From NCBI GenBank assembly GCA_031414595.1, contig JANNVX010000006.1, positions 1 to 31,832 of the forward strand: a stretch of 31,832 nucleotides of DNA. Reading direction: 5' to 3'. The DNA comes from Deinococcales bacterium (lineage in GTDB: Bacteria > Deinococcota > Deinococci > Deinococcales > JAAFIG01). Below, piece by piece: positions 7,238-31,119 of the stretch. Numbering within the stretch: position 1 is the stretch's first letter; the number at the start of each line of letters is the position of its first letter. The notes beneath the pieces are model-generated. The model searched no databases. It saw nothing but the letters and a program-made list of their open reading frames with translations, and was not told the origin of the DNA. Made by a program: the position numbers and the translations under genes.

Positions 7238-8349
7238 CGGGTTGGTCTCCCACCTAACACATTTTTTTCCCAAAGTTCACCGAGACTATAATTTTCAAGC
7301 CACTTTTTAAGTCTATTCGTATCTAAGTGCTTGAATTGAGTTTCAAGATTTTGCCGTTCTACCACAATTATTTCATCTGGCTCGAGTCTGTCCACAAGTG
7401 AAACCGATTGTGTGGCAATAATAATCTGGCGTTGAGCAGATATACTTCTTATCACTGCCAAAAGCGTCTCGAGGGCATGAGGATGCAAACCCAATTCAGG
7501 TTCATCAATCACAATCAAATGTGGTAATTGCTCAAGTGGCTGCAAAAGTAATGTTAATAATGCAATGAAACGCAGTGTACCATCTGACATTTGATGAACA
7601 CCAAATATCATCTCAGAACCCATCTCGAGATACCGCAAACGAATATGCGAACTGTTTGGTTCAAGTACAAAATCCTTAAAAAAAGGTGTGCTGAGACGAA
7701 TGGTATCCACAATACGCTGATAGTGTCTAGGATGCGTGTTTTTTAGTTTGTACAGCACTGCGGCTAAATTTGCGCCATCTGAGCGCAAAAAAACATCGTC
7801 ATCCAATGTACCTGTTTGTTTGATGCGGGCATTTTCACTGGTATCATCAAACTGGTACGGACGAATACTTGCTAGAATATCGCGTAAAATTCGAGCTTTT
7901 AAGGATGTTTCATCTTTACCAAAACCAACAGGGCGCAATTGAGATTCTTTTTCGCCAACAGTAAATTGAACATTGTTTAATTTACCCAGCTTATTTGTAA
8001 AATTAAAACCATCTGAGCGAAATACAAAAGCATCACTGGCTGGAGCATGAACCATTTCAAATTGATACTCGAGCAATTCTTGATCGTGCATAAAGCTCAA
8101 GGTCGCGCCTAAATTCGTTGTCACTTTTGATCCAAGATGCAAAATACTGCTTGCTCCACCAGCAGATTGCTGTGTCCAAAACGCAAAATCACCCAAAGCA
8201 ATTTGATTGAGTACCTTAAAAAAAGAAATCAAATTGGATTTTCCAGCCCCATTAGCTCCAATCAGCACATTCAAAGGTCGTAACTCGAGGGTACTCGAGC
8301 GGATGGACTTAAAGCCCTCAATTTGAATGCTTTTTAGAAACGTTTTCAT
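7234..8349 (-). CDS. ABC/AAA_21-type ATPase
   Basis: Walker A GANGAGKS, signature MSDGT, Walker B IVIDEPELGLHP, ATQS, C-terminal YSLGELWEKNVLGGRP. Confidence 0.9.
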   Translation of the reverse strand: MKTFLKSIQIEGFKSIRSSTLELRPLNVLIGANGAGKSNLISFFKVLNQIALGDFAFWTQQSAGGASSILHLGSKVTTNLGATLSFMHDQELLEYQFEMVHAPASDAFVFRSDGFNFTNKLGKLNNVQFTVGEKESQLRPVGFGKDETSLKARILRDILASIRPYQFDDTSENARIKQTGTLDDDVFLRSDGANLAAVLYKLKNTHPRHYQRIVDTIRLSTPFFKDFVLEPNSSHIRLRYLEMGSEMIFGVHQMSDGTLRFIALLTLLLQPLEQLPHLIVIDEPELGLHPHALETLLAVIRSISAQRQIIIATQSVSLVDRLEPDEIIVVERQNLETQFKHLDTNRLKKWLENYSLGELWEKNVLGGRPTR

Positions 8350-8403
8350 CTGTCCCTAGTTTACACGCTTAACCTCTCACCGATTCATGAGACAATGCGG
8401 TTT

Positions 8404-11333: not shown

Positions 11334-14300
11334 ATGAAATTTTCTCGAATTCTAAGCATGGCGCTGATTGGTTCAGTTGCTCTCGCTGCCTGCACCCAAC
11401 AGGTTGCACCAAAACCAATCCAGCCCAATAAAGTCACGGCGCTTGGTAAAATCGAAGTAGCATTTGGTGATAGTAGCGCACTCCGCACCCAAGCGGTCTT
11501 GCCCGATAATGCAATTACCTTTACCCGTACTGCCAGCAGTGTGGATACAACAGGTACAGAACGCTACATTCGAGCGGTTTTTGACATCACCAACAATACC
11601 GCTAGTGCTTTCAATAACCTGACTTTTTATGCCTATAACCAAAGTGCCAACAGTATTGGCGGGACTGCCATAAAAAGCCTGAATAACTTTGGTAATGTCA
11701 ATGTAGCAAGTACAGCCGCAGCCCAAAGCCTGAAGCCAACCCATGGACTCGATACCAGTGGGGCAAGTGTCAGTGGCGCAGAAGACTTACAAGTGTTTCA
11801 ACCAACCGAAGCCTCCGATGCACAAGCCGCAGGATTAGCAGCCATTCCACCTGTGCTTGGCAACACCGACACGGTTCTCGAGTATGGTTTTGTGGCTCGG
11901 CGTTGCACTGCCAATTGTGCCAGCCCAAACCCAACTTGGACGCGTACAATTGGCGCAGGAGAAACAGGTCAGATTAGCTTGGCGTACAAACTTCCAGAAG
12001 GCATTTTAAGTAACTCGGCGAATCCATATGGTTTTGTGGCAACTTTTGTGCTTGCCAATGAAACCACAGCTCGAGTTAGCCGCAGCCCAGAAGAACCGAC
12101 CAGCAGTGCCAGTTCTCGAGCCACAGCATTTACTGCCACCCAAACCATTTTGGTCGGCGCAGATGCAGACACCGCCACGGGCAGCCTTCGTTTAAGCAAC
12201 GCTAAAATTGGCACTGCGCCTACAACTTTACTTGACCCAATTTGTTCAAATGGTGCAACCCTAACCAGTATTTCTACCTTGCAAGGTTCTGGAACTGCAA
12301 CGACAGCTTCGGGTACACACACGATTCAAGGTGTGGTGGTTGGGGCTTTCCAAAGTGCTGACAGCAGTGGTTTGCAAGGTTTTTACTTGCAAGACCGTGT
12401 TGGCGATAGCAACACTGCCACTTCAGATGCTATTTTTGTTGATGAGTTCGGAGCAACCCCAGATTCTAGTGTTCCAGTAGGTAGTTTTGTGCGGGTTACA
12501 GGAGCAGTATCCGAATTCTCTAACCTGACCAGAATCGTCCCCACCACTGTAACCCGTTGCGGCACTCAAGACCTGCCCAGCCCTGTACAAATCAGTTTCC
12601 CACTCACAGGCGGACAAACCGACCTCGAGAAGTTCGAGGGGATGCTTAGCCAAATCCCAACCCAAATGACCGTCACCGAGCTTTTTGAATTGGGTCGTTT
12701 TGGACAAGTCGAAATTTCCTCGAGCGGTACAGATAACCAAGTTGGAACAGATGACCGCTTAGACCAATTTACCCAGTTTAATCTCCCAAGTGTGGCTGGT
12801 AATGCAAGCCATTTGGCAGCCTTGAACAAACGAAAAATTGTTGTGGATGATGCCCGCAGCGACGACAACGGACCCGCTAATATCCTCGGACGTGGCGGTA
12901 ATCCACTGACCGCCAGCAACACTCTACGCGGTGGCGATACAATCACCAATTTGACAGGTATTCTTGATGAACGCTTTGCCGCCTACCGTATTCAACCCAC
13001 CACAGCCGCAAATTTTCAAGCCGTCAATGCCCGTACAAGCAGCCCAACTGTAGCAGGCAGTTTGCGTGTCGCCAGTTTTAATGTTCTGAATTACTTCACC
13101 ACCCTAAACACCGCCACAACCGATACCTTCACACCAACGGGATGCTCTGCCATTGCACCACGCGGAGCAAATACAGCGACCGAATTTACCCGCCAAAAAG
13201 ATAAAACTATAGCTGCTATCCGTGCCATGAACGCCGATGTGCTTGGCTTAATCGAAATGCAGAACAATGGCGCGGATGCCAGCAGTGCCATTGTTGACTT
13301 GGTAACCGCCGTCAACGCTGGACAACCACTAAGTAACCAGTATGCAGTCATTGCCGACCCTGCCGCCCCAGAACGGTCTGGTTGTGATGCCATTAAAGTG
13401 GCTTTTATATACAAACCAAGCACCGTCACACCAGTCGCCACTGGACTCAGTACCGCCACGGTTGGGGCTGTTACAGTAGCATCAGGTGCGGCTTTTACTG
13501 TACCCGCAGGTTACGACGGCAACACTGATTTAGTCGCAGCCTTTGACAATAACAACCGCAAGCCAATTGCTGTGACCTTCCAACAAATCTCGAGTTCCGA
13601 GACTTTTACTGCTGTGATGAACCACTTCAAATCCAAAGGCTCGAGTGCTGGTGGAGTTGGCGACACAGACACCAACGACGGACAAGGCAATTCTAACGGA
13701 ACTCGAGTTCGTGCCTCAAAAGACCTGAAATCATGGCTTGCTACCAACCCTACTGGCACAACCGACACCGATTATCTGATTATGGGCGACCTAAACGCTT
13801 ACGCCAAAGAAAATCCAATCACTGAACTCGAGACGGTTTTTACCAATTTATTACCACTCAGTACCTATTCTTATGCTTTTGATGGCGCATGGGGAAGCCT
13901 TGACCATGCCCTTGGCAGCACCAGTTTGACCACCCAATTGGCAGGTGCAGCCAAATGGCACATCAATGCCGATGAACCAACCTCACTGGATTACAACACC
14001 CAACTAGACCCAAGTGGCAACGCAGCCACCAATAATAAAATTATTAAAACCCCAGCCCAAACAACCAGCCTGTACGCTGCCGATGCTTTCCGCTCGAGCG
14101 ACCATGACCCTGTGGTTGTGGGCTTAAACCTAGGTTCTGGTTTTTCGGTTAGTGCCAGTGCTTTAAGTAACAACAACTACACTGTTGGAGCGGCAGGAAC
14201 AGCCACAAGCACCATTACGGTCAACCGCACCAGCTTTACAGACCCCGTAACCCTGAGTCTCGAGGTTAGCCCAGCCAATGCTGGAATCACTGGTAGCTTT

Positions 14301-15251
14301 AGTAACAATCCAAACTCGAGCGGCACAAGCACCTTAAACTTAAGTGTGGATAATACTGTGACTGCGGGTACTTATACCCTAACGGTTAAAGGCACATTCG
14401 GCGCAATGGTGATGTCAAGTAGTACATTTAACATTATTGTTGCACCTGTTTGCACCAGCCTCAGTGTCACTCCAAACTCTGCCAGTATTGCGGTTGGCGC
14501 AACTCAGCAACTCACAACTACCTTCTCACCTTCTGGTTGTGCTGCAACAGCTGTCACATGGTCAAATGGTGGTTCAGCATTTGCCACGGTCAACACGAGC
14601 GGTTTGGTTTTAGGTGCGTTAGTGGGTTCGGGAACAATTATCACAGCCACAGCAGGGGCAATAAATGGCACAAGCACAATCAACGTGACTGCGAGCGTTT
14701 CGGTGGCTGGATTAGTCATAAACGAAGTTGACTATGACAATATAGGCACAGATTCAGTTGAATACATCGAGATTTATAACCCAACAGCTTCGGCAATTTC
14801 CTTATCTGGCATAAAGGTTTTCCTTGTCAATGGCTCTAACAACACGAGTTATACAACCATTGACCTTACAAGTGGTGGTTCGTTAGCTGCAAATAGCTAC
14901 TTGGTTATTGCAAATACAGCCTTTCTTAGTACAATCACAGCCAGTGTTGAAATCGCATTTGCGGGAACTAATGATCAAATTCAAAACGGCTCACCAGATG
15001 GTATTGCCTTGGTAAATACAAATACCAGCACACTTGTTGATGCTTTGAGCTATGAAGGCAGTATCACAGCAGCTGTACTGACAGGTATTGGCACATTTAA
15101 TTTGGTTGAAGGTACAGTTTTAGCCGCAGCCACCGCCGATAGCAATACAGTCGTTGGTGCATTTATTCGTTCACCAAATGGTACAGATGCCAATAATGCT
15201 TCGACTGACTGGGTATTTACAGCAACTCTAAGTCCAGGCACAGCAAACTAA
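11334..15251 (+). CDS. ExeM/NucH-family extracellular endonuclease lipoprotein (OB fold, EEP domain, Ig-like domains, lamin-tail domain)
   Basis: GGAGG RBS; lipobox LAAC (Cys20); GFYLQD, LEKFEGM, VASFNVLNYF, GLIEMQN, NHFKSKG, MGDLNAY, LDHALG, WHINADEP, RSSDHDP; C-terminal LVINEVDYD...EYIEIYN. Confidence 0.9.
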   Translation: MKFSRILSMALIGSVALAACTQQVAPKPIQPNKVTALGKIEVAFGDSSALRTQAVLPDNAITFTRTASSVDTTGTERYIRAVFDITNNTASAFNNLTFYAYNQSANSIGGTAIKSLNNFGNVNVASTAAAQSLKPTHGLDTSGASVSGAEDLQVFQPTEASDAQAAGLAAIPPVLGNTDTVLEYGFVARRCTANCASPNPTWTRTIGAGETGQISLAYKLPEGILSNSANPYGFVATFVLANETTARVSRSPEEPTSSASSRATAFTATQTILVGADADTATGSLRLSNAKIGTAPTTLLDPICSNGATLTSISTLQGSGTATTASGTHTIQGVVVGAFQSADSSGLQGFYLQDRVGDSNTATSDAIFVDEFGATPDSSVPVGSFVRVTGAVSEFSNLTRIVPTTVTRCGTQDLPSPVQISFPLTGGQTDLEKFEGMLSQIPTQMTVTELFELGRFGQVEISSSGTDNQVGTDDRLDQFTQFNLPSVAGNASHLAALNKRKIVVDDARSDDNGPANILGRGGNPLTASNTLRGGDTITNLTGILDERFAAYRIQPTTAANFQAVNARTSSPTVAGSLRVASFNVLNYFTTLNTATTDTFTPTGCSAIAPRGANTATEFTRQKDKTIAAIRAMNADVLGLIEMQNNGADASSAIVDLVTAVNAGQPLSNQYAVIADPAAPERSGCDAIKVAFIYKPSTVTPVATGLSTATVGAVTVASGAAFTVPAGYDGNTDLVAAFDNNNRKPIAVTFQQISSSETFTAVMNHFKSKGSSAGGVGDTDTNDGQGNSNGTRVRASKDLKSWLATNPTGTTDTDYLIMGDLNAYAKENPITELETVFTNLLPLSTYSYAFDGAWGSLDHALGSTSLTTQLAGAAKWHINADEPTSLDYNTQLDPSGNAATNNKIIKTPAQTTSLYAADAFRSSDHDPVVVGLNLGSGFSVSASALSNNNYTVGAAGTATSTITVNRTSFTDPVTLSLEVSPANAGITGSFSNNPNSSGTSTLNLSVDNTVTAGTYTLTVKGTFGAMVMSSSTFNIIVAPVCTSLSVTPNSASIAVGATQQLTTTFSPSGCAATAVTWSNGGSAFATVNTSGLVLGALVGSGTIITATAGAINGTSTINVTASVSVAGLVINEVDYDNIGTDSVEYIEIYNPTASAISLSGIKVFLVNGSNNTSYTTIDLTSGGSLAANSYLVIANTAFLSTITASVEIAFAGTNDQIQNGSPDGIALVNTNTSTLVDALSYEGSITAAVLTGIGTFNLVEGTVLAAATADSNTVVGAFIRSPNGTDANNASTDWVFTATLSPGTAN

Positions 15252-15303: not shown

Positions 15304-15816
15304 TTAAGCAAGGATTTTACGCGAGACTTCTTCTAATTCTTCTGGCGAACACGCCACAACCGCACTTAAACTCGAGGCAGCAATCGTACCTAACACACTC
15401 AAACCGTGCATACCGTTCAGACTTAAACTCGAGTGCCACGCTGCAAACTCCCCGCCGTGTTGGTACTCGAGACCAGTGCTGCTAACAGAACTTTGAGTCT
15501 CGAGACCAAGAGCTTCACCACTCGAGACGATACAATTCGCATCAAGGGCAATCACTATTTTAGGTCTGAGGAATCGCAGAGCGGCTTCTATCGGTGTGCT
15601 GTGGTTCTGCTCGAGTACCGCCAGTGTAATCCGACCCTTAAATGAATCTAAATTCTCGAGAATGCTTAAAACCTTTTGCCCATGCTCAAGCGGACAGAGC
15701 AAAAGCACGGTCTGCCAACCTGTGCTGCCCTCGAGATGAATAAAGGCAGTGCCAAAGGCATCAGTCCAACTTCTCGAGAAGGTTGGTTTCATACTGGGTG
15801 CAATCACAGGTTTCAT
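15304..15816 (-). CDS. Hypothetical protein
   Basis: 170-aa ORF coupled (ATGA overlap) to the upstream C26 gene and ending at the terminator; no recognised motif. Confidence 0.65.
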   Translation of the reverse strand: MKPVIAPSMKPTFSRSWTDAFGTAFIHLEGSTGWQTVLLLCPLEHGQKVLSILENLDSFKGRITLAVLEQNHSTPIEAALRFLRPKIVIALDANCIVSSGEALGLETQSSVSSTGLEYQHGGEFAAWHSSLSLNGMHGLSVLGTIAASSLSAVVACSPEELEEVSRKILA

Positions 15817-16523
15817 GCTGGAATTTTTTCTAGCATACCCATGAAAGCTCTAAACGGCGCGAGGTGTTCAGGGTGGGCTTCCCAAAGTAATTCGGGATGC
15901 CACTGTACTGCCAGCACACCATCGCCTTCGATGCCCTCTACAAGACCATCTGGGGCATATGCCGAGACCGATAATCCGGGCGCGACATCCTTTATTCCCA
16001 TGTGATGGTACGAATTGACCCGCAGCGTTTCCACACCATGGGCTTTTGAAAGGCGCGTACCACCAACCACTCGCACCCGATGCCCAAGTACGGGCGGGGT
16101 GGCAGTTTGGCGATGGTCTGCCCAAAGTCCGTTCGATGTTGGAATGTGCTGATGCAACGTACCGCCTTCGGCAACGTTGATGAGTTGAAAACCACGACAG
16201 ATTCCCATGATTGGTTTTTTGGTCTCTCGAGCCAAGGTGTATAACTCGAGTTCAAAGGCATCACGCAGCGCATCCACTTCGCCAAGCCCAGCTTCGTGGT
16301 CTGCCCCCCAGATTTCGGGGTCTGGGTCAACCCCACCCGAGAACAAAACACCATTCAGAGCCTCGAGTTGCATAGCCGCCGTTCCAACCAGACTGGGCAG
16401 CATGACTGGAAGCCCTCCCACAGCCAAAATCGCGGCTGAATAAGCAAGCGCAGTCCCACTCCAAGCCCGTTGTAAACTCGAGTCCTTAGAACTAGAGACC
16501 GTAATTCCAATTCGTGGTTTCAT
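15813..16523 (-). CDS. Gamma-glutamyl-gamma-aminobutyrate hydrolase family (peptidase C26, class I glutamine amidotransferase)
   Basis: KPRIGIT, FSGGVD, GICRGFQLINVAEGGTLHQ, VNSYHH, AVQWHPE. Start 16523 (or 16529); TAGGAT lies 7 nt upstream of 16523. Confidence 0.92.
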   Translation of the reverse strand: MKPRIGITVSSSKDSSLQRAWSGTALAYSAAILAVGGLPVMLPSLVGTAAMQLEALNGVLFSGGVDPDPEIWGADHEAGLGEVDALRDAFELELYTLARETKKPIMGICRGFQLINVAEGGTLHQHIPTSNGLWADHRQTATPPVLGHRVRVVGGTRLSKAHGVETLRVNSYHHMGIKDVAPGLSVSAYAPDGLVEGIEGDGVLAVQWHPELLWEAHPEHLAPFRAFMGMLEKIPA

Positions 16524-16543
16524 TCGCATAATCCTAACACGCC

Positions 16544-16572
16544 TTGACAAATGTGCCGTGCATTTGTATATT
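16544..16572 (+). promoter_or_regulatory. Sigma70-type promoter of tRNA-Leu
   Basis: TTGACA (16544-16549), 17-nt spacer, TATATT (16567-16572). Confidence 0.8.
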
Positions 16573-16585
16573 CTCTTCCGCCCTC

Positions 16586-16672
<87 letters not shown>

Positions 16673-16673
16673 C

Positions 16674-16706
16674 AAGAAGCGCTTCTTAATAGGGAGCGCT
16701 TTTTTG
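16674..16706 (+). terminator. Intrinsic terminator after tRNA
   Basis: AAGCGCTTC...GGAGCGCTT stem followed by a T-run. Confidence 0.75.
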
Positions 16707-16727
16707 ATTTTTTGGGTACAATGATGT

Positions 16728-17651
16728 ATGTCATTCTCCGAGCATCGGTTTTCGTTCGCTGGTAAAAAAGTTCTGGATTTTGCAGATAAACTCTTTGATA
16801 CAGATAAATTTGCTTTCCGAGTGCGGGTAGAATACGAAGAAACCCCAACTTGGCTCGAGAAGTTCAATACCCTTTTAGAACAAGAAAATGCTGCCAATCT
16901 CGAGGCGTTGGTGATTGGCGCTTGGTCGGATGAACAATTTGAAGATGGCTCGGAGCAAGTGGTCGAAGCACTGGTGGCAGCCAAAGACACCTTAACCAGT
17001 CTTAAAGCCATTTTTCTGGGCGATATTGCCGGCGAGGAATGCGAAGTTTCATGGATTCATCAGTCTGATATTTCGCCGATTTTTCTGGCTTACCCTGCGC
17101 TTGAGGTCTTTGCAGTTCGTGGCTCGGAAAACCTACAATTTGGTCATGTTTCGCATCAGCATTTGCGGCACTTAACCATTCAAACAGGTGGGATGGATGT
17201 TGCTATTTTGCGAGACGTTCTGGGGTCTGAATTCCCAAATCTCGAGCATCTGGACTTGTACCTAGGCACAGATAATTATGGTGCAAACACTGCCATAGAC
17301 GACTTTGCACCTTTACTGCGTGGCGAATTATTTCCAAAATTAGTGTACTTAGGACTTCGCAACTCTGACCTGACCGATGCGCTGGCTGGGGTCTTGGTCA
17401 ATGCCCCGATTTTAGAGCGAATCAAAACACTAGATTTATCGCTTGGCACGCTATCCGATGAAGGTGCAAAAATCTTCTCGAGTGCCGAGAAACTAGGCAC
17501 TCTCGAGAAATTAGACATCCATTATCATTACGTTGGCGAGGAAGCCTTGAAAGAATTAAAAGCCCATTTGCGGAAACTTAAGATAAAAATTGATGCCGCC
17601 GATGCCCAAGACCCAAATGAAGATTGGCGCAGTCCACAAATCGGTGAATGA
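16728..17651 (+). CDS. STM4015-family leucine-rich-repeat protein
   Basis: ALVIGAW, LKAIFLGDI..EECEVSWIHQSD, FPNLEHLDLYLG...YG, LDLSLGTLSDEGA; LxxLxL repeats. Confidence 0.8.
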   Translation: MSFSEHRFSFAGKKVLDFADKLFDTDKFAFRVRVEYEETPTWLEKFNTLLEQENAANLEALVIGAWSDEQFEDGSEQVVEALVAAKDTLTSLKAIFLGDIAGEECEVSWIHQSDISPIFLAYPALEVFAVRGSENLQFGHVSHQHLRHLTIQTGGMDVAILRDVLGSEFPNLEHLDLYLGTDNYGANTAIDDFAPLLRGELFPKLVYLGLRNSDLTDALAGVLVNAPILERIKTLDLSLGTLSDEGAKIFSSAEKLGTLEKLDIHYHYVGEEALKELKAHLRKLKIKIDAADAQDPNEDWRSPQIGE

Positions 17652-18771
17652 TCTCCTTGTTATTGCCCCGCCCGAAAGTCGTCGCGTTCGCGCTTTGCAA
17701 AACAGTTTACTCGAGGCTGGACTACCTCCTGCTCGAGTGTTGTCTTGGCTCGAGGTGCTAAATGGCGAACCACTCGAGAAACACATTTTTCCAAACACCA
17801 TCATCAAACTCGATTCGCCTTCTGAGGATTGGGAAACAGACAAAGCCCTGCTTGCCCTTGGCGAACTTCAACCCGACCCAGACCGTGAGTACGCTCGAGT
17901 CAATCCTGAGAATCTCGAGTATGACCTTGGGGCAATTCTGTCCTCGAGACAATGGTATTTGGGGTTTTGCACCGCCCTCGAGAATGTAAGCACCCAACTG
18001 ACGCAGCTTGGGAGACATGCCATGAATCATCCAACGGATATTGCTTTAATGTTTGATAAACGTTCTACTCACGCTAAACTCGAGAAGGCTGGAATTCTTG
18101 TACCGCCAGCTTTACCGCCAGTTCAGAATTTCGATGAGTTGTTTGAACAGATGCAGCGCTTAAATTGGAATCGGGTTTTTATCAAACTCGCGCATGGTTC
18201 TGGGGCGGCTGGGGTAATTGCCCTCGAGAACCACAAAGGAAATTGGCAAGCCACCAGCACGGTAGAAATGGCAAGTGGTGGGCGGTTGTACAACACCAAG
18301 CGCCTTTGGAAGTACCGTAACTTGGAACAAATCAAGGCGCTGGTCAATGTCATTTGCTCACAGCGTGTGCATGTCGAGAAATGGCTGTCCAAAGCCAGTT
18401 TTGAAGATAAAATTTTTGATTTACGGGTCGTGGTGATTGCTGGAATTGCCAAGCATGTGCTGGTGCGCTCCTCGAGTGGCACAGTCACCAATTTGCACCT
18501 TGGCAATGAGCGCGGTAATTGGGACGGGGTACGTGAAAAACTTGGCGAAACTTGGCTCGAGATTAAAAGCACTTGCGAGCAGTGCATGGGTTTATTCCCC
18601 AATAGTCTTTATGCTGGGGTGGATGCGCTGGTGCAAACCGATTGGCAACACCACGCCATTCTCGAGATGAATGCTTTTGGCGATTACCACCGCAATGTTT
18701 TTGTGGATGATTTAGACACCTATCAAACCCAATTTGAGGCTTGTAATAGAATAGGGGTATCCGATGCTTAA
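17644..18771 (+). CDS. STM4014-family ATP-grasp protein
   Basis: Probable GTG start at 17644 overlapping the upstream stop; MFDKR, FIKLAHGSGAAGV, FDLRVVVIAG, TNLHLGN, AGVDAL, LEMNAFGD. Confidence 0.8.
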   Translation: MNDLLVIAPPESRRVRALQNSLLEAGLPPARVLSWLEVLNGEPLEKHIFPNTIIKLDSPSEDWETDKALLALGELQPDPDREYARVNPENLEYDLGAILSSRQWYLGFCTALENVSTQLTQLGRHAMNHPTDIALMFDKRSTHAKLEKAGILVPPALPPVQNFDELFEQMQRLNWNRVFIKLAHGSGAAGVIALENHKGNWQATSTVEMASGGRLYNTKRLWKYRNLEQIKALVNVICSQRVHVEKWLSKASFEDKIFDLRVVVIAGIAKHVLVRSSSGTVTNLHLGNERGNWDGVREKLGETWLEIKSTCEQCMGLFPNSLYAGVDALVQTDWQHHAILEMNAFGDYHRNVFVDDLDTYQTQFEACNRIGVSDA

Positions 18772-19570
18772 CGCCAATCATTACATTCCCCATAAGGACA
18801 TACTTTTTATCACCTTAGACAGCCTTCGTTACGATGTGGCAGTCCAAACCCTCCAAGCTGGGCGCACCCCTAATTTGGCTCGAGTCTTGCCAAACAGTGC
18901 GTGGGAACTGCGCCACACCCCAGCGACCTTTACCTTTGCAGCGCACCAAGCATTTTTTGCCGGCTTTTTGCCGACTCCTGCCACAACTGGGCGGCACTCG
19001 AGGTTGTTTGCGGCAAAATTTGAGGGTTCTAAAACCACGTCCGAGACGACTTTTGTCTACTCAGAAAGCACTTGGCTCGAGGCGCTTAAAAACCTTGGGT
19101 ATCATACGTTTTGTATCGGTGGAGTGGGTTTTTTTCGTGGTACGGGCGGTTTGAGTTCGGTTTTACCAGATTATTTTGAGCATTCGTTTTTCTCGCACAG
19201 CATGGGTGTGACCAGTCCACGCAGCACAGAAAAACAAGTAACTCGAGCCGTCAATCTGCTGCATCAAATTCCAGATTCTGAGCGGGTCTTGTTGTTCGTT
19301 AATGTTTCGGCAACCCACACGCCCACGCGGATATTTCTGCCAAGCGCGCCCCAAGACTCGCTCGAGACCCAAGCCGCTGCCTTAGCTTATGCCGATTTGC
19401 ACCTTGGTAAACTCTTTGAAGTCTTTGAATCAAGGGGCGGGTCATTGTGCATTATTTGTGCTGACCACGGTGAGGCATTTGGCGAAGATGGTTTTTATGG
19501 GCATCGTTTAGCCCACGAAACCGTTTGGAATGTCCCCTATGTCGAATTTTTTCTCGAGGGAATAACATGA
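18764..19570 (+). CDS. STM4013/SEN3800-family hydrolase (alkaline phosphatase/sulfatase fold)
   Basis: LFITLDSLRYD, TFTFAAH, NVSATH, ADHGEAFGEDGFYGH. Confidence 0.82.
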   Translation: MLNANHYIPHKDILFITLDSLRYDVAVQTLQAGRTPNLARVLPNSAWELRHTPATFTFAAHQAFFAGFLPTPATTGRHSRLFAAKFEGSKTTSETTFVYSESTWLEALKNLGYHTFCIGGVGFFRGTGGLSSVLPDYFEHSFFSHSMGVTSPRSTEKQVTRAVNLLHQIPDSERVLLFVNVSATHTPTRIFLPSAPQDSLETQAAALAYADLHLGKLFEVFESRGGSLCIICADHGEAFGEDGFYGHRLAHETVWNVPYVEFFLEGIT

Positions 19571-20874
19571 ATCTCGAGGCGGTTCTAACGGGTAGCCCGT
19601 ATATTTCTTACACCTACGCCTATCCGCATAAAACTGCCTACCGTGCCATAAAACCCGTGCCACTCGAGCAAGTTTGGCTAAACGAACCTCGAGCCGCATT
19701 TTTATACATTCATGTGCCGTTCTGCGAGATGCGTTGTGGTTTTTGTAATTTGTTTACAACTGTCAATCCAGATGCCAGTCTCGAGGCTGGGTTTTTAAGT
19801 GCCTTAGAACGTCAAGCTAAAGTGGTGCGTGATGCTTTAGCAAATAAAACCGTCACTCGAGCCGCGCTAGGTGGTGGTACACCGACTTTTCTTGTGCCGT
19901 CTGAACTCGAGCGGGTGCTTAAAATTCTCGAGATGTTTAACGTCAGCAACCAAACGCCGCTCAGCGTCGAGACTTCACCGCAAACCGCAACTTTGGATCG
20001 GCTCGAGTTGCTGTCAAATTTTGGGATTGACCGAATCAGTATTGGTGTGCAGAGCTTTGTGGAGTCCGAAGCTCGAGCAGTTGGGCGCTCACAGCGTTCA
20101 AGCGAGGTTCTTGAGGCGTTGGAGCGCATTAAAGCCCAAGATTTTCCAACCCTGAACTTAGATTTAATCTATGGTTTACCGAATCAAACCCGTGAATCGT
20201 GGCTCGAGTCGCTAAAAACAGCTTTGCAATTTGCACCACAAGAACTTTTTTTGTACCCGTTGTATGTGCGCCCTTTGACTGGTTTGGGCAAACTCGAGCA
20301 GAGTTGGGATGATACACGCCTCGAGTTGTACCGTGTGGCTCGGGATTTTTTACTTCAATCTGGGTATGAACAGCATTCGATGCGGGTTTTTAGACGATTG
20401 GATGCGCCATCTCGGGAGGCTGGCATTGCTTTTGATGCCCAAGCCGACGGCTTAATTGGTCTTGGTGTAGGGGCGCGTTCGTACACCCAAAATCTGCATT
20501 ACTCGAGCGAATACGCGGTTGGGCAGGTTGGGGTCAAGGAAATTATTGCTGATTATGCGTTGCGTTCTGAATCCGATTTTGCTTTTGCCTCGCATGGTTT
20601 TTATTTGGATGGTTTAGAACAGCGTCGCAGATTTATCCTGCAAGATATTTTTAATGTTGTGGGTTTCTCGAGAAGTGCATATCAGCAGCATTTTTCTTCG
20701 GATGCGTTAGCTGATTTCCCGATTTTTACGGGTTTACAGGGGCTTGGTTTGATTGCCATTTCCCCAGACCAAATTCATTTGACCAAAATAGGACTTGAAC
20801 GTAGCGATGCGATTGGGCATTTGTTCTACTCGAGCCAAGTTCAGCAAGTAGCCGAGGATTACCAGTGGCGCTGA
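19567..20874 (+). CDS. STM4012-family HemN-like radical SAM protein
   Basis: Start ATG 19567 (ATGA overlap); YTYAYPHKTAY, LYIHVPFCEMRCGFC, GGGTPT, RISIGVQSF, NLDLIYGLPNQT. Confidence 0.87.
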   Translation: MNLEAVLTGSPYISYTYAYPHKTAYRAIKPVPLEQVWLNEPRAAFLYIHVPFCEMRCGFCNLFTTVNPDASLEAGFLSALERQAKVVRDALANKTVTRAALGGGTPTFLVPSELERVLKILEMFNVSNQTPLSVETSPQTATLDRLELLSNFGIDRISIGVQSFVESEARAVGRSQRSSEVLEALERIKAQDFPTLNLDLIYGLPNQTRESWLESLKTALQFAPQELFLYPLYVRPLTGLGKLEQSWDDTRLELYRVARDFLLQSGYEQHSMRVFRRLDAPSREAGIAFDAQADGLIGLGVGARSYTQNLHYSSEYAVGQVGVKEIIADYALRSESDFAFASHGFYLDGLEQRRRFILQDIFNVVGFSRSAYQQHFSSDALADFPIFTGLQGLGLIAISPDQIHLTKIGLERSDAIGHLFYSSQVQQVAEDYQWR

Positions 20875-21734
20875 GTGTTTTGTACCGTGGATTTTTAAGC
20901 AGTTGCAATTATGCCTGTGCTTATTGCCCGTTTGCCAAGCACACCGAATCTAGGTTTGAACATTTGCGCGATGCTGCCGCCCTCGAGAAATTTGCAACTT
21001 GGGTAGAAACTCGGGGCAAACCGACCAGTGTATTTTTTACGCCTTGGGGTGAGGCGTTAATCCGTACTCGGTATCAAAAAGCAGTACAGCATTTATCAAA
21101 TTTAGCGCATCTCGAGAAAGTGGTGGTACAAACCAATGGCTCGTGGGGTTTGCGCTGGCTAGAACAGGTTAATCTCGAGAAATTGGCGCTGTGGATAACC
21201 TTTCATCCATCGGAAACCAGCTTAGAAAAATTTGCGACTCGAGCCAAAGAACTTATTCGCCTTGGGGTACGTTTTAGTGTTGGGGCGGTGGGTATCCGCG
21301 AAAATCTTGTATTGCTCGAGCGTTTACGAGAAGCTATCCCACCCGAAATTTACTTCTGGATAAACGCTTTTGACCGCCGAGGACACGATTACTACAATTC
21401 AGACACACTCGAGCGCTTAACCAAAATAGACCCATACTTTGCCCTCAATCTCGAGCGCTACAAATCTCGAGGACAAGCCTGTAGTGCGGGTCATACGGTG
21501 ATTAGTGTGGATGGTTTTGGCATGGCGCGGCGTTGCCATTTTATTGAAACGCCAATTGGCAGTATTTACACGCCAGACTTTGAAGAAAAACTTTTGCCTA
21601 AAGCCTGTTCTCGCAGTTTTTGCGATTGTCATATTGGCTATGTGCATCTCGAGAAATTGGGCTTACAAGAGGTATTCGCAGGTGGCATTCTCGAGCGAAT
21701 ACCTAGCCAATGGAATAAAAACATCCTCACCTGA
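20865..21734 (+). CDS. STM4011-family radical SAM protein with C-terminal Cys cluster
   Basis: LYRGFLSSCNYACAYCPFAK, FFTPWGEAL, QTNGS; CSAG..RCHF..CSRSFCDCHIG (SPASM/twitch-like). Confidence 0.85.
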   Translation: MALSVLYRGFLSSCNYACAYCPFAKHTESRFEHLRDAAALEKFATWVETRGKPTSVFFTPWGEALIRTRYQKAVQHLSNLAHLEKVVVQTNGSWGLRWLEQVNLEKLALWITFHPSETSLEKFATRAKELIRLGVRFSVGAVGIRENLVLLERLREAIPPEIYFWINAFDRRGHDYYNSDTLERLTKIDPYFALNLERYKSRGQACSAGHTVISVDGFGMARRCHFIETPIGSIYTPDFEEKLLPKACSRSFCDCHIGYVHLEKLGLQEVFAGGILERIPSQWNKNILT

Positions 21735-21767: not shown

Positions 21768-22934
21768 TTATTGTTTGCCGACTTCGAGGCTAATGCCAAT
21801 GGTGGTGCGGGGTTTGAATCCCTCGAGTTTTTCGCTCAGGTACTTATCGCCAGACTTATCCATCATTAAGTTCTGTCCCAAAAAGGCAGTCGCAAAGTGC
21901 TTGGTGATGTCATTCAGGCGTTCCCTGTCCCAGACTGGTTCAAACCAGCGTTCGTAATCCGACCAGTTGCCACGGGCAGCTTCGGGTGGGTTGTTTGTCC
22001 ATGGGTTGTGTGATGCGCCGTCCAAGGTTAGTAAGTATTTACTGCTCGAGCCAGAAGTCTTAAAGGCAGTTTGGGCATCGCGTTTATAGGTGGCAATGTC
22101 GTCCTGAGCGCCACAAGCCACAAACAATGGGGTTTTCATGGCTTTGAGTTGAGTGGCACTGAGCCAAGGAATCCCATATGGTGCCATTGCAAACACAGCT
22201 TTGATGCGTGGGTCGGCTTTGACCACACTCGAGCCGCGCACTTGGGTAATCCCATCAAAAAATGGCAGGGCAAAACAAGGACCTTCGTTATTGGAGGCTT
22301 TGCAGTACGCCTCCAAATTGGCTTTGTCCAAGCCGATGCCTGCGGCGTTCAGAACCGAATAACCGCCGTAGCTGTAGCCCATCAATCCAACATTGTTGCC
22401 GTCGGCATTGCTCATGCTCTTGGCAATTTCGCCAATGCTAAAGAGAATATCCAGCGGTCTATCCACCAAACTCGAGATATAAGCCGCTTGGGTGATGTCG
22501 TCGTAGGTGCTTCCAGTGTGGTCAATCGCTGCCACAACATAACCTCTGGATGCCAAATGTTCGGTCAGGTAGGACATCATAAATCTCGAGCCAGCTTGTC
22601 CGTGCGATAAAATCACCATTGGGAATTTGCCAGTTTCGAGTGTGGCATCTCGAGCCGCCCGTCCGGGCAGGTCAAATTTGGTTGTGCCAATCGTGGCTTT
22701 GTAAATCGTGCGTTCTGCTTGGGTAGCTCTGAGCTTAGCGGGATACCAAACCTCTAGTGTTAATGGGCGCTTACGGGTCGCATCGGTCAAATTTAGGGTT
22801 TTAACCCCAACTTGGTGTGTTCCCCTTGCCGCGAGTGGTGGCGCATCTGGGCGCGAGATGGTTTGCCCCAAAGCAGTTATCGAGGCGGTTGCGAGGGCTA
22901 AGCCCGTGCCAATCATCAATAGAATTTTTTGCAT
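21768..22934 (-). CDS. Secreted alpha/beta hydrolase (dienelactone hydrolase/PAF-acetylhydrolase-like)
   Basis: Signal peptide; EVWYPA, LSHGQAG, HLASRGYVVAAIDH, nucleophile GYSYGG, D (GAQDD) and H (ASHNP). Confidence 0.88.
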   Translation of the reverse strand: MQKILLMIGTGLALATASITALGQTISRPDAPPLAARGTHQVGVKTLNLTDATRKRPLTLEVWYPAKLRATQAERTIYKATIGTTKFDLPGRAARDATLETGKFPMVILSHGQAGSRFMMSYLTEHLASRGYVVAAIDHTGSTYDDITQAAYISSLVDRPLDILFSIGEIAKSMSNADGNNVGLMGYSYGGYSVLNAAGIGLDKANLEAYCKASNNEGPCFALPFFDGITQVRGSSVVKADPRIKAVFAMAPYGIPWLSATQLKAMKTPLFVACGAQDDIATYKRDAQTAFKTSGSSSKYLLTLDGASHNPWTNNPPEAARGNWSDYERWFEPVWDRERLNDITKHFATAFLGQNLMMDKSGDKYLSEKLEGFKPRTTIGISLEVGKQ

Positions 22935-23005: not shown

Positions 23006-24004
23006 CTATGCCTCTAATCTCGGCGCATAATCGTTAGGATTGTCAAAGCCAGCCAGCCATGCTGCCGCTTGATGACAAGTTTTAGTTTTGGGCGGGACGC
23101 GCAGCACATAATTGCGATTTGTACTTGGGCAAATTACCCATACCGCTACAAAATCTTCATCTTTTTTGAAGGGTACGCGCAATAACTTGCGCGTACCACC
23201 CGCGTCTTGGTCAGTATCCAGCACCTGGGCTTTGACGTTTTTTAGAAATGTTTCATAGCCCATCCGTTCAAGTTTGACTCGGCGCAACTCGAGGTTTTCG
23301 GTCTCGATGATTTCTTCCGCCGTGATACTTTCGGGTTCAAAAGCAATCCGAGCTTCGATGCTTACACCACGCCAACGCAATTTGGTCTTGGGATTCTCGA
23401 GCTTGGTAATCGCTGTATCCGCCACATCAAGCCAAGAGCTAATCTGTAAGCCTTTAGGCAGCGAATCAATTTGTTCGCAACCCGCCAAGTCAAGTTGTGC
23501 CAGTTGCCCGAGCCAATTTGGTAATTTTTTAAGCCGAGTACAACCACGCAGCACCAAATGCCCAATGCCAATACTGCCATACTCTGGAAATGCCTCGAGT
23601 TGCACACAACCCGTTAAGTCTAAAAAACTGGTGTCTATGCCGTTTGGTAAGGCTTGTAAACCAATGCACTCACGCAGCAGCAGCGAACCAACCCGCAGGT
23701 TTTCTGGTAAAAACTCGAGCGCTTCACAACCCGATAAATCCATTCTAAAGCGCACCGCAATATCGGCTGGAAGACTGGTAATACTTAAATTTTGGGCATG
23801 GAGTTGATTGCAGACTAAACCCTTTGGTAACTCGAGCAACCCACTACCCGAGACATCAAGGCTGCTACAGGTGAGGTTATTTGGTAAACAACGCAAATTC
23901 TTATTGTTGGCAAAACTAAGATTCCCTGAAACCACCAGATTTTCCGGTGCGTTTCCCTCGAGAATAAGCTGTATAGCGGTTTGGACTGGTGTCGTGGTTT
24001 TCAT
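23006..24004 (-). CDS. LRR-repeat protein with C-terminal DUF6745-like domain
   Basis: GAGGA RBS, ATG 24004; about 20-aa LdLsGc..L..LP repeats; C-terminal WRGV, ENLELRRV..ERMGYE, CPSTNRNYVLRVPP...CHQAAAWLAG. Confidence 0.78.
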   Translation of the reverse strand: MKTTTPVQTAIQLILEGNAPENLVVSGNLSFANNKNLRCLPNNLTCSSLDVSGSGLLELPKGLVCNQLHAQNLSITSLPADIAVRFRMDLSGCEALEFLPENLRVGSLLLRECIGLQALPNGIDTSFLDLTGCVQLEAFPEYGSIGIGHLVLRGCTRLKKLPNWLGQLAQLDLAGCEQIDSLPKGLQISSWLDVADTAITKLENPKTKLRWRGVSIEARIAFEPESITAEEIIETENLELRRVKLERMGYETFLKNVKAQVLDTDQDAGGTRKLLRVPFKKDEDFVAVWVICPSTNRNYVLRVPPKTKTCHQAAAWLAGFDNPNDYAPRLEA

Positions 24005-24077: not shown

Positions 24078-24407
24078 TTAATCCCTGACAGTAACAATGG
24101 CTTTAGGGTGATATTCGCGCTGCATCCAGTAGCGGTAAGTGGCAACCTCGAGTGGGATGGCTCGGTGTTCTTCGTGGATAATCGCAGTGGGTTGTTTTAT
24201 TTGCACAAAGGTTTGCCCGTTGTACGTAAATAACTGGGCAGCTTGGGCATTTTCGATGCGGTGGCTGTGACCTGTCAGTTCGCCGCGAGCAAGAATTGCG
24301 CCTTGGGTGGGGGTGGCGTTGTCTGGCAAGCTCGGTACTTGCTCAAGCATCACGTCGCCGTGGCGGTATTGAATGGGTTTTTGGGTTAATAAGTTAGAGA
24401 ATTTCAT
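24078..24407 (-). CDS. Small His-motif conserved hypothetical protein
   Basis: YRHGDV, LARGELTGHSHRI, HEEHRAIPL, QREY; GAAAGGAAG RBS upstream. Confidence 0.8.
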   Translation of the reverse strand: MKFSNLLTQKPIQYRHGDVMLEQVPSLPDNATPTQGAILARGELTGHSHRIENAQAAQLFTYNGQTFVQIKQPTAIIHEEHRAIPLEVATYRYWMQREYHPKAIVTVRD

Positions 24408-24449: not shown

Positions 24450-24478
24450 ATGATACCAGCTAATTTTTGTCTTGTCAA
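24450..24478 (-). promoter_or_regulatory. Sigma70-type promoter for the His-motif/DUF6745 operon
   Basis: Minus strand TTGACA (24478-24473), 17-nt spacer, extended -10 TGG-TATCAT (24458-24450). Confidence 0.7.
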
Positions 24479-30663: not shown

Positions 30664-31107
30664 ATGATTCCAGCATTTGACCAAAATGGCAACCTTCTTG
30701 CTGGAGAACACGACCTTGATTGGCAAGAATTTACACAACACTTTGCTTGGAATACAAAACGAGCTACGCTCATTGGTGGTCTACAAGCTGCCTTGATTGC
30801 CCTACATAATTGTGGTTGTCCGACTGCTTGGATAGATGGCAGTTTCGCTACAAATAAGCCAAATCCAAACGACATTGACGTAGCTTGGGATGATGACCAA
30901 ACAGACTTTCAATTGCTACAACAAATCGAACCCACACTCCTAGAATTTAGTCATCGCCGTGCTGCTCAAAAACGCAAATTTGGCTGTGAATGCTTTCCTG
31001 CCACATGGGAAGCTGACGCGAATGGCACAACTTTTCTCGAGTATTTCAAAAAAGACCGCAACGGCAACCCAAAAGGCATCATCCGAATTTCACTCAGTAC
31101 CATCTAA
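30664..31107 (+). CDS. DUF6932-like putative nucleotidyltransferase (toxin-antitoxin-like)
   Basis: MIPAF..NGNL..GEH; WIDGSFATNKPNPNDIDV (Pol-beta GS..DxD); PKGII end. Confidence 0.78.
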   Translation: MIPAFDQNGNLLAGEHDLDWQEFTQHFAWNTKRATLIGGLQAALIALHNCGCPTAWIDGSFATNKPNPNDIDVAWDDDQTDFQLLQQIEPTLLEFSHRRAAQKRKFGCECFPATWEADANGTTFLEYFKKDRNGNPKGIIRISLSTI

Positions 31108-31119
31108 AGAGGTGAACCC

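Follow-up and report, generated by a model that had tools for sequence, protein, structure and literature searches.

The STM4015-STM4011 cassette of a Deinococcales bacterium pairs a leucine-rich repeat protein ending in an invariant glutamate with a RimK/LysX-like ligase gene

Introduction

A stretch of 31,832 nt from a Deinococcales bacterium (contig JANNVX010000006.1, approximately 48% G+C), which was analysed as a whole and is referred to as the window, carries a cassette of five genes encoding a leucine-rich repeat (LRR) protein, an ATP-grasp ligase, an alkaline-phosphatase-superfamily enzyme and two radical S-adenosylmethionine (SAM) enzymes. The corresponding protein families were named after the Salmonella Typhimurium LT2 genes STM4011 to STM4015. 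In the excerpts of the papers that mention these genes or SEN3800, they appear as table entries, that is, in a regulon list, as a sigma-54 chromatin immunoprecipitation site and in a list of positively selected genes, the latter containing STM4015 for the Typhi lineage. This agrees with a preliminary description of the window, made from the sequence alone, whose author knew of no demonstrated function. We found no paper in full text that assigns the cassette a function, although the NCBIfam model comments may already describe it, and literature searches with combinations of ATP-grasp, radical SAM, LRR, C-terminal glutamate, WGR, LysW and amino-group carrier protein yielded nothing relevant. 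The cassette is a genuine feature composed of catalogued gene families, with a function that is uncharacterised.

The cassette deserves attention because it is large and widespread, occurring in approximately ten phyla, on plasmids and in Salmonella, and encodes two radical SAM enzymes. Here, we establish the identities and the co-occurrence of the five genes, describe a conserved tail at the C-terminus of the first gene product and show the kinship of the second gene product with ligases that act on terminal glutamates.

Results

Gene content and organization of the cassette

All five genes lie on the + strand, with 16728-17651, 17590-18771, 18764-19570, 19525-20874 and 20865-21734 as the longest readings of their open reading frames (ORFs). 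The probable starts, which were placed from the DNA and the onset of the profile matches, are ATG 16728, GTG 17644, ATG 18764, ATG 19567 and GTG 20865 (Table 1). Because the starts and stops of consecutive genes overlap by 8, 8, 4 and 10 nt, the preliminary description was right to speak of five overlapping genes at 16728-21734.

Each of the five proteins scored above the curated cut-off of its own NCBIfam model, namely STM4015 with 324.8 bits (NF038076, cut-off 275), STM4014 with 380 bits (NF038074, cut-off 175), STM4013/SEN3800 with 367.7 bits (NF038075, cut-off 250), STM4012 with 544.1 bits (NF006067, cut-off 380) and STM4011 with 355.4 bits (NF038073, cut-off 200), which shows that all five family assignments made previously are correct. 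Pfam yielded generic calls only, comprising a weak LRR, a YheC/D-type ATP-grasp, Sulfatase/Phosphodiest and Radical_SAM.

Table 1. Positions of the cassette genes, the upstream elements and the companion module in the window
Feature	Position	Strand	Remarks
tRNA-Leu(GAG) gene	16586-16672	+	immediately upstream of the cassette
-10-like hexamer TACAAT	16717..16722	+	5 nt before the first ATG; read from the sequence; candidate leaderless start
STM4015-family LRR protein	16728..17651	+	307 aa; NF038076; ribonuclease-inhibitor-like LRR core and acidic C-terminal tail
STM4015 tail codons R301-S-P-Q-I-G-E307	17628..17648	+	conserved tail, invariant C-terminal Glu
STM4014-family ATP-grasp ligase	17644..18771	+	375 aa from GTG; NF038074; 8-nt overlap with the end of the STM4015 gene
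STM4013/SEN3800-family alkaline-phosphatase-superfamily enzyme	18764..19570	+	268 aa; NF038075; probable Thr57 nucleophile
STM4012-family HemN-like radical SAM enzyme	19567..20874	+	435 aa from ATG; NF006067; ATGA overlap with the STM4013 gene
STM4011-family radical SAM enzyme	20865..21734	+	289 aa; NF038073; C-terminal five-cysteine region
LRR and DUF6745 protein	23006..24004	-	332 aa from ATG 24004; PF20530 79.3 bits; recurrent cassette companion
Small His-rich protein	24078..24407	-	109 aa; directly upstream of the DUF6745 gene
Promoter-like site TTGACA-17-TATCAT	24450..24478	-	upstream of the small gene; 11/12 in a consensus scan, pattern match only

Co-occurrence and distribution

Related loci were collected by a scan with STM4013 in which one genome per species was kept, resulting in 80 loci (numbered with the prefix L) whose phyla were taken from the record titles; profile hidden Markov models built from the first matches were then run against every ORF of these loci. 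The loci span approximately ten phyla and comprise 33 Actinomycetota, 14 Cyanobacteriota (two of them Obscuribacterales), nine Pseudomonadota, nine Myxococcota (one titled only 'Deltaproteobacteria bacterium'), seven Planctomycetota, four Chloroflexota, two Desulfobacterales, one Deinococcus and one Blastocatellia. STM4013 was detected in all 80 loci, STM4014 and STM4012 in 74 each, STM4011 in 72 and STM4015 in 69. The preliminary description had beforehand made its proposal dependent on co-occurrence across genomes, and the genes do co-occur: all five were found in 65 loci, and the canonical order 4015-4014-4013-4012-4011 was kept in 48. Among the 15 incomplete loci, L002, L010, L030, L039, L051, L068 and L074 are truncated by contig ends, STM4013 stands alone in L035, L037 and L061, and the 4013-4012-4011 trio occurs without STM4015 and STM4014 in L010 and L018.

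For STM4013, 3327 homolog clusters were found, with the best relatives reaching 92% identity; identity between phyla is 55-60%, and the occurrence across these phyla is patchy. The cassette is also located on 16 plasmid or megaplasmid records, including those of Deinococcus, Methylobacterium, Streptomyces, Paenibacillus, Salmonella and one Haladaptatus. Together, the five genes form a single cassette that is inherited jointly and is horizontally mobile. When all other ORFs of the 80 loci were clustered, no family of transporters, peptidases or regulators emerged as conserved beside the cassette, and the earlier remark that no transporter is evident was thereby borne out.

The STM4015 protein carries a conserved acidic tail with an invariant C-terminal glutamate

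Across the related loci, 92 of 95 STM4015-family ORFs end in Glu, and in an alignment of 27 sequences E307 is invariant and R301 is conserved to at least 90%. A search with this alignment against 1.84 billion cluster representatives (50%-identity clusters) resulted in 16554 matches at E <= 1e-3 and 1583 at E <= 1e-30. Glu is the last residue in 149 of the best 150 representatives, the exception being a giant LRR protein of 5264 aa. The tail consensus R-[YF]-x-x-V-[SG]-E, which reads R-[YF]-x-x-[VI]-[GSA]-E in the copies from the loci, follows an acidic stretch, with a fraction of acidic residues of 0.33 at positions -30 to -8 of the representatives. In the 149 Glu-ended representatives, the consensus residues are Arg at -6 in 140, Tyr or Phe at -5 in 135, Val at -2 in 120 and Ser or Gly at -1 in 122. 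The window protein ends with ...NEDWRSPQIGE, the Salmonella protein with ...NAMYTE and a Paenibacillus copy with ...RYPSLTE.

The other four families served as a control and have no fixed last residue; the commonest one is Ala in 25 of 75 STM4014 proteins, Arg in 29 of 79 STM4013 proteins, Lys in 38 of 72 STM4012 proteins and Gly in 10 of 72 STM4011 proteins, and a crude background of ORFs ends in Glu at 6.8%. The acidic STM4015 tail with its invariant C-terminal Glu is new here. A universal Arg-Tyr or Glu-Tyr cross-link within the tail was considered and rejected because the aromatic residue at -5 is absent in 14 of the 149 representatives and in the window protein. Three STM4015 copies, located in L011, L013 and L038, lack the terminal Glu and may be decaying.

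The AlphaFold2 model of STM4015 has a mean predicted local distance difference test (pLDDT) value of 93.6 and shows no secondary structure past residue 289. Its best fold match in the PDB is 2ra8 (Foldseek E 1.4e-21, template modelling score 0.82, 30% identity), which the STM4015 profile also matches with an E-value of 2e-74, followed in the list by LRRs of the ribonuclease-inhibitor, F-box and NLR type.

The number of near-full-length STM4015 copies per locus varies, with 0, 1, 2, 3, 4 and 5 copies in 13, 48, 13, 2, 3 and 1 of the 80 loci, respectively, so that 19 loci carry two to five paralogs, and the tail is kept in almost all copies. Four to five tandem paralogs, some of them inserted between STM4012 and STM4011, are found in L011, L012, L013 and L023 from Nostocales and in L038 from Herpetosiphon. 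Among 26 long STM4015 representatives, 13 have one or two WGR domains at the N-terminus, and a Lon substrate-binding domain and a KOW motif are present in one each; WGR forms within the cassette occur in L054, L057 and L065, and the paralogs from Nostocales have an N-terminal extension of approximately 115 aa with weak HEAT matches. Because the long forms add N-terminal modules while the copies keep the tail, the architecture of STM4015 is that of a variable head (absent in the window), a conserved LRR core and a conserved, acidic, flexible tail. Several putative 'substrate' genes per set of enzymes recall, by analogy, the multiple precursor genes in clusters for ribosomally synthesized peptides that are modified post-translationally (RiPPs). 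The five genes inventoried in the preliminary description thus stand, but the expansion of the LRR paralogs, the WGR fusions and the two-gene companion module described below had been missed.

The gene of the STM4014 ligase is coupled to that of STM4015

In 59 of the 67 loci that hold both genes, STM4015 is located directly upstream of STM4014 on the same strand. The two genes move as a block relative to the 4013-4012-4011 trio: the pair is inverted in L003, L004 and L006 (Planctomycetota) and lies downstream of the trio in L054 and L065. STM4014 possesses the invariant ATP-grasp residues K139, K181, E341 and N343. Its closest relatives with a name belong to the RimK clade: among 28 STM4014 members, matches were obtained to rimK_fam (21), MptN (15), LysX (13), the RimK-related Glu-ligase-like family (7) and CofF (3). 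The N-terminal approximately 115 residues lie outside the RimK/MptN-family matches, which begin at residues 115-117. A PDB search with the single STM4014 sequence returned nothing, and the best PDB matches of the profile were LysX 1uc8/1uc9 (E 0.0045) and 3vpd (E 0.0056).

The ribosomal protein S6 is poly-glutamylated by RimK at its C-terminal Glu, the carrier LysW receives an amino acid on its C-terminal Glu from LysX or ArgX, and CofF and MptN attach Glu to the Glu at the end of a cofactor tail; RimK, LysX, MptN and CofF all activate a terminal Glu at its carboxylate. By analogy with these enzymes, an acidic tail with an invariant terminal Glu, encoded right before an overlapping ligase gene, is what a substrate of the RimK clade would be expected to look like.

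A complex prediction for STM4014 and STM4015, in which each protein was provided as an alignment, scored 0.01 relative to a mark of 0.32 and counts neither for nor against an interaction. Among proteins of 658-2000 aa, no clean STM4015-STM4014 fusion was found, with two singletons present, finding none being weak evidence. One of the singletons was examined and discarded: its similarity to STM4015 stops 45 residues before the end and it looks like a frameshifted read-through. As weak evidence, the near-absence of fusions fits the need for a free C-terminus.

The remaining enzymes of the cassette

In 19 sequences, STM4013 has the invariant residues D19, T57, H61, D234, H235, H247 and R248, with T57 in the context F-T-[YF]-A-A-H. 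The protein matches the Pfam models Sulfatase (35.3 bits, cut-off 25, E 1e-8) and Phosphodiest. T57 aligns with the Thr of 'SLTFPNH' in the structure 2gsn of a Xanthomonas nucleotide pyrophosphatase/phosphodiesterase (NPP), the nucleophile of that enzyme. Hence, the probable Thr nucleophile proposed earlier is reasonable. STM4013 possesses the metal ligands and the Ser/Thr nucleophile by which NPP-like members of the alkaline-phosphatase superfamily are recognized, and it lacks the Cys/Ser nucleophile within a C/S-x-P-x-R motif that characterizes sulfatases. It is a minimal alkaline-phosphatase-fold enzyme and probably performs phosphoester chemistry.

Both radical SAM proteins exceeded the cut-off of PF04055 (29.5 bits), STM4012 with 79.9 and STM4011 with 38.6 bits. 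STM4012 has the invariant cysteines C53/C57/C60 (CxxxCxxC), a GGGTP motif and an N-terminal Y-x-Y-P-H-K-x-x-Y-R motif. Its profile matched Escherichia coli HemN (1olt) with an E-value of 2.3e-55 over positions 9-409 of 434, and the match to the class C methyltransferase NocN was worse and shorter (E 1.3e-34, positions 37-307). The scores of STM4012 were below the cut-offs for HemW (149.3 vs 205.4) and ChuW (137.8 vs 400). STM4011 contains the invariant cysteines C14/C18/C21 and, in addition, C206, C224, C248, C253 and C255. The five C-terminal cysteines probably bind an auxiliary Fe-S cluster as in twitch/SPASM enzymes; among radical SAM enzymes with an auxiliary cluster, peptides or proteins are frequent substrates. 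No relative of STM4011 was found in the PDB at E <= 0.1, either by sequence or by profile. The preliminary description had called the motifs of the five genes intact, and they are both present and conserved.

Genes for haloacid dehalogenase (HAD) phosphatases are located inside or beside the cassette in L020 (7381-8004), L049 (7327-8013), L047 and L057 (7267-7950), L082 (10877-11611) and L081 (11410-12237). The cassettes with such genes belong to six lineages, among them Desulfobacterales, Myxococcaceae, Salmonella and a Deinococcus plasmid, and the window has no HAD gene. In L020 and L049, the HAD hydrolase occupies the gap between STM4014 and STM4013; in the cyanobacterial loci, the STM4014-STM4013 gaps contain no conserved ORF.

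A companion module of a small His-rich protein and an LRR-DUF6745 protein

Downstream of the cassette and convergent to it, the window contains a two-gene module; between module and cassette lies a gene for an alpha/beta hydrolase (21768-22934) that is not conserved. A terminator-like hairpin at 24513-24483 precedes the promoter-like site of the module at 24450-24478. In 29 of the 80 loci, a DUF6745 homolog is located no more than 8 kb from the cassette; these loci include Planctomycetota, Chamaesiphon, Deinococcus, Methylobacterium, Ktedonobacteraceae and many Actinomycetota, the companions in the Actinomycetota sharing only the DUF6745 domain with the window protein. In unsupervised clustering of the remaining ORFs, the small protein formed the top family with 26 of 80 loci, 25 of which also have DUF6745, and its gene is always located directly upstream of the DUF6745 gene.

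The small protein has the invariant motifs G-D, G-E-x-T-G-H-x-H, H-x-E-H and Q-R-E-Y and a C-terminal Asp, and the DUF6745 protein has the conserved tail ...GFDNPxDYxPxxE[TAS]. No Pfam match and no PDB match in sequence or profile searches were obtained for the small protein, which matches phrog_27831 (E 3.3e-11). The AlphaFold2 model of the DUF6745 protein (pLDDT 95.6) matched only LRRs among the PDB folds (such as XopL, RPP1 and IpaH); in this search, the C-terminal DUF6745 domain had no solved relative. In a viral fold library, the model matched the DUF6745 protein of the Microcystis phage Ma-LMM01. The ESM Atlas returned for both proteins only their own clusters and LRR look-alikes and no new family, and our literature search for DUF6745 gave no matches.

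In Ma-LMM01, the small protein and the DUF6745 protein are encoded adjacently as gp175 and gp174 (L084, 3968-5499), flanked by genes for DNA polymerase/exonuclease on one side and for a uracil-DNA glycosylase on the other. The presence of the pair in this phage shows that the module can exist without the cassette. The companion module may work with the cassette, work against it or merely travel along.

CTCGAG abundance and residence of the cassette

The hexamer CTCGAG occurs 49 times within 16728-21734, so that the count of about 49 in 5 kb given in the preliminary description was exact. In the entire window, there are 188 sites (approximately 5.9 per kb) where 3.9 sites would be expected, a number that none of 100 shuffles reached. 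The sites lack an extended flanking consensus, and the HIP1 palindrome (GCGATCGC) is absent from the window. Within genes, 111 of 174 sites are in frame as CTC-GAG (Leu-Glu). The density is 5.4-11.5 per kb in the five cassette genes and 4.0-6.9 per kb in accA, accD and lon. Because this density is at least as high as in these housekeeping genes, the cassette is not a recent arrival, and the long residence in the genome that had been suggested is reasonable. In its behaviour, CTCGAG resembles an alternative 'highly iterated palindrome'; Elhai 2015 (PMC4390886), an article on such alternative palindromes, does not contain the string in its main text. The highest density in the window (17.5 per kb) belongs to a 170-aa ORF at 15304-15816 on the - strand.

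Upstream region and other genes of the window

The preliminary description assumed a leaderless promoter in front of the cassette. The TACAAT hexamer 5 nt before the ATG agrees with this assumption; sequence inspection gave no -35 box and no Shine-Dalgarno sequence before ATG 16728, and the hexamer is not among the sites of a two-hexamer promoter scan, which leaves the leaderless start plausible, with weak support. The tRNA-Leu(GAG) gene has its own promoter-like site at 16544-16572 and is followed by a terminator-like hairpin at 16674-16704, with the cassette ATG 24 nt beyond, and transcriptional read-through from the tRNA gene into the cassette is possible.

The genes flanking the cassette are housekeeping ones. 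Several neighbours were evaluated and rejected as parts of the cassette. A Peptidase_C26 gene (15813-16613, - strand), the alpha/beta hydrolase gene and an ExeM/NucH nuclease gene lack counterparts next to the cassettes of the 80 loci, and the 170-aa ORF mentioned above has neither a counterpart there nor a family. Peptidase_C26 is gamma-glutamyl-hydrolase-like, and its position beside a Glu-ligase-like gene is suggestive, with a possible activity reverse to that of a Glu ligase. The longest reading of this divergent ORF is overlapped by tRNA-Leu(GAG), and therefore its true start lies further in.

Among the genes farther away, the ExeM/NucH-family gene (11334-15251, + strand) encodes an extracellular nuclease of 1305 aa with Big_2 and lamin-tail domains. 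An AAA_21/AAA_15 ATPase with a weak MADS3-like match stands beside a DUF4276 protein (6539-8349, - strand), and together they look like a two-gene pair of the defence type. An 875-aa protein (8395-11022, + strand) with two Peptidase_U32 stretches and DUF3656 has sub-threshold similarity to TrhP, UbiU and UbiV and may be a fused oxygen-independent hydroxylase-type enzyme. A DUF6932 protein followed by an HTH_3 (Xre-type) regulator (30664-31509, + strand) may form a small toxin-antitoxin-like or regulatory pair.

Discussion

A proposed role of STM4015 as substrate or carrier

Because of the invariant C-terminal Glu on a conserved tail and the coupling to a RimK/LysX-like ligase, we propose that STM4015 is a substrate or carrier whose terminal Glu is ligated by STM4014 and then tailored by the other three enzymes, a proposal in which our confidence is about even. 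The preliminary description had seen the LRR protein as a scaffold that recognizes a target and had found no precursor. The invariance of the terminal Glu (149 of 150 representatives) and the adjacency of the ligase gene (59 of 67 loci) favour STM4015 itself as the likely substrate or carrier.

We infer the following steps, beginning with the action of STM4014 on the tail. The cassette would act intracellularly, and its target would be STM4015, the protein encoded by its own first gene. STM4014 would activate the carboxylate of the terminal Glu as an acyl phosphate and then join an amine to it, for instance an amino acid, as in the pairs RimK-S6 and LysX-LysW. The attached unit, or the tail itself, would be tailored by STM4012, STM4011 and STM4013. 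Since HemN converts propionate side chains to vinyl groups and the side chain of Glu is a propionate, an oxidative decarboxylation of the HemN type by STM4012 is an attractive guess, the alternative being a C-methylation. STM4013 would probably contribute phosphoester chemistry. The pathway could end with an LRR protein that stays modified or with a small molecule for whose assembly the LRR protein is the carrier. The absence of a conserved transporter, peptidase or regulator beside the cassette fits an intracellular, protein-bound product.

Several observations weigh against this proposal. Only the Arg at -6 and the terminal Glu of the tail are near-universal, and the window tail, RSPQIGE, is without the common Tyr. 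The last seven residues of the model have a pLDDT of approximately 80, and the tail may pack on the LRR domain and have a structural or regulatory role. STM4014 scores far below the cut-offs for RimK (TIGR00768, 23.8 vs 143.4 bits) and LysX (TIGR02144, 15.6 vs 275.6 bits); because all its matches to the RimK/LysX families are far below the cut-offs, STM4014 is a kin of these families and not a member. Neither experiment nor structural prediction places the STM4015 tail in STM4014, and L026 keeps the other four genes with no STM4014 within the contig. Finally, the HAD phosphatases together with STM4013 hint at a chemistry of small-molecule phosphoesters that the modification of a tail leaves unexplained.

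Alternative explanations

The same phosphoester hint, from the HAD phosphatases and the alkaline-phosphatase-fold enzyme, would suit a function of STM4015 as an adaptor or scaffold for a third-party protein or nucleic-acid target, or as a holder of the enzymes, which would then modify the target or make a free small molecule, with the Glu serving for docking or autoinhibition rather than as a reaction site. Binding is what LRR domains do, the STM4015 model is similar to LRRs of the ribonuclease-inhibitor and F-box type, and the WGR (13 of 26 long members), Lon substrate-binding and KOW modules look like targeting devices. We nevertheless consider such an adaptor unlikely, since it leaves unexplained both the last-residue Glu in 149 of 150 representatives and the locking of the LRR gene upstream of a RimK/LysX-type ligase gene, and since the neighbourhoods of the 80 loci contain no conserved gene for a third-party target. 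A role in anti-phage defence or inter-microbial conflict, in which diversified LRR proteins, some with WGR domains, serve as sensors of an invader, the product of the enzymes is a toxic or signalling molecule and the DUF6745 module is a partner or a counter-measure, appears somewhat more doubtful still. It would account for the patchy distribution over approximately ten phyla at an STM4013 identity of still 50-59%, the 16 plasmid or megaplasmid records, the expansion of the LRR gene to up to five copies, the recurrence of the companion module as gp175-gp174 in Ma-LMM01 and the entry of STM4015 for the Typhi lineage in the positive-selection table. However, comparison with PADLOC-DB 2.0 gave no meaningful match, the best one being a generic radical SAM similarity to PDC-M51A and pVip, and nothing at all for STM4015 or STM4013; no effector domain such as a nuclease, pore or TIR domain was recognized, and the cassette is, by its CTCGAG density, a long-standing resident of this genome with housekeeping genes on its flanks. 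This explanation concerns the biological role and would be compatible with a mechanism of tail modification.

Two further explanations start from single enzymes. STM4011 could be a maturase of STM4013, in the style of the anaerobic sulfatase-maturing enzymes, in which case the trio would act on a phosphorylated or sulfated small molecule and STM4015-STM4014 would be a separate regulatory pair. The 4013-4012-4011 trio is indeed the most tightly linked part of the cassette and occurs alone in L010 and L018, STM4013 matches the Pfam model Sulfatase (E 1e-8), and STM4011, whose set of cysteines resembles that for an auxiliary cluster, matches the anaerobic sulfatase maturase very weakly (E 0.0091). 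However, this match amounts to 14.9 bits and is far below the cut-off of 484, the invariant nucleophile of STM4013 is a Thr in an NPP-like context rather than the Cys/Ser of C/S-x-P-x-R, and both the HemN-like enzyme and the tail remain without an explanation, which makes a maturase very improbable. Tetrapyrrole or heme handling, in which STM4012 would be a coproporphyrinogen dehydrogenase like HemN or a heme chaperone like HemW and the remaining genes would be accessory, is the explanation to which we give the least credence. Although STM4012 aligns with HemN 1olt over nearly the full length (E 2.3e-55) and matches the HemW, HemN and ChuW models with E-values of 1e-40 to 1e-43, it misses the cut-offs of all three and passes that of its own family model (544 vs 380), no other heme-pathway gene is conserved nearby in the 80 loci, and heme synthesis offers no role for the four partner genes.

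Significance

The invariant C-terminal Glu of STM4015 turns an open-ended, unknown operon into a direct question, namely whether STM4014 modifies the end of STM4015 and what product the radical SAM enzymes would form from it. If true, STM4015 would be a new class of substrate for RimK/LysX-type ligases, the chemistry of the radical SAM enzymes on a protein C-terminus would probably be new, and the solved structure 2ra8, and perhaps DUF6745, would be given a function. More speculatively, and with considerably less confidence than in the proposal of STM4015 as substrate or carrier, the cassette could represent a new biosynthetic logic that is a hybrid of LysW-like carrier chemistry and RiPP maturation, in which a folded LRR platform offers its invariant Glu as the site where the ATP-grasp, the HemN-type and auxiliary-cluster radical SAM enzymes and the phosphodiesterase-like enzyme would assemble an unknown protein-bound group or a releasable metabolite. 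Variable LRR, WGR and HEAT modules would allow the paralogs to bring the group to different cellular or invader targets, and the DUF6745 module would work with or against it. A possible product of such a logic, which is a guess, is a vinylglycine-type residue formed through HemN-style decarboxylation of the Glu side chain.

Comparison with known systems

The gene order in the window is that of the records from Salmonella, Deinococcus and Paenibacillus annotated with the STM4011-STM4015 names of the Prokaryotic Genome Annotation Pipeline. Compared to the Salmonella record, STM4013 of the window is only approximately 37% identical, the window has no equivalent of the Cof-type HAD gene with which the Salmonella STM4011 overlaps, and the module of small protein and DUF6745 protein is present, none being annotated in the 16.8 kb shown of the Salmonella record. 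The structure 2ra8 (Bacteroides fragilis Q64V53), a structural-genomics 'uncharacterized protein', is a true member of the STM4015 family, with a chain that has approximately 70 extra N-terminal residues in comparison with STM4015.

The oxygen-independent coproporphyrinogen III dehydrogenase HemN of E. coli (1olt) is the best solved relative of STM4012 and shares CxxxCxxC and GGGTP with it; STM4012 is below the HemN cut-off (139.5 vs 324.95), and the gene context of the cassette is unrelated to heme. The maturases PqqE and MftC are radical SAM enzymes that modify peptides at the C-terminus or close to it, PqqE acting on Glu and Tyr of PqqA and MftC on the C-terminal Tyr of MftA. Similarly, STM4011 has extra C-terminal cysteines, and its gene stands near that of a ribosomal product whose conserved end includes Tyr and Glu. 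In contrast, the presumed 'precursor' STM4015 is a folded protein of 307 aa, and its tail in the window has no Tyr; no short precursor and, according to Pfam, no RiPP recognition element was found, and no releasing peptidase is among the conserved neighbours. STM4011 has five conserved extra cysteines, whereas a full SPASM motif has seven.

As in the system of RimK and S6, an ATP-grasp enzyme of this clade is combined with an acidic-tailed protein that ends in Glu; STM4015 is unrelated to S6, and RimK works alone, that is, without radical SAM partners. In the system of LysW and LysX, which functions in the biosynthesis of lysine and arginine in Thermus and Sulfolobus and in related secondary-metabolite pathways, the carrier is a zinc-ribbon protein of approximately 54 aa, whereas the putative carrier in the window is an LRR protein of 307 aa. 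No kinase, reductase, aminotransferase or releasing peptidase of the LysZ/Y/J/K types is present in the window annotation or among the conserved neighbours, and the cassette has two radical SAM enzymes and an alkaline-phosphatase-fold enzyme in their place. Both systems pair a RimK-family ATP-grasp enzyme with a protein that has an acidic C-terminus ending in Glu, and the window tail ...EDWRSPQIGE recalls EDWGE, the ending of LysW.

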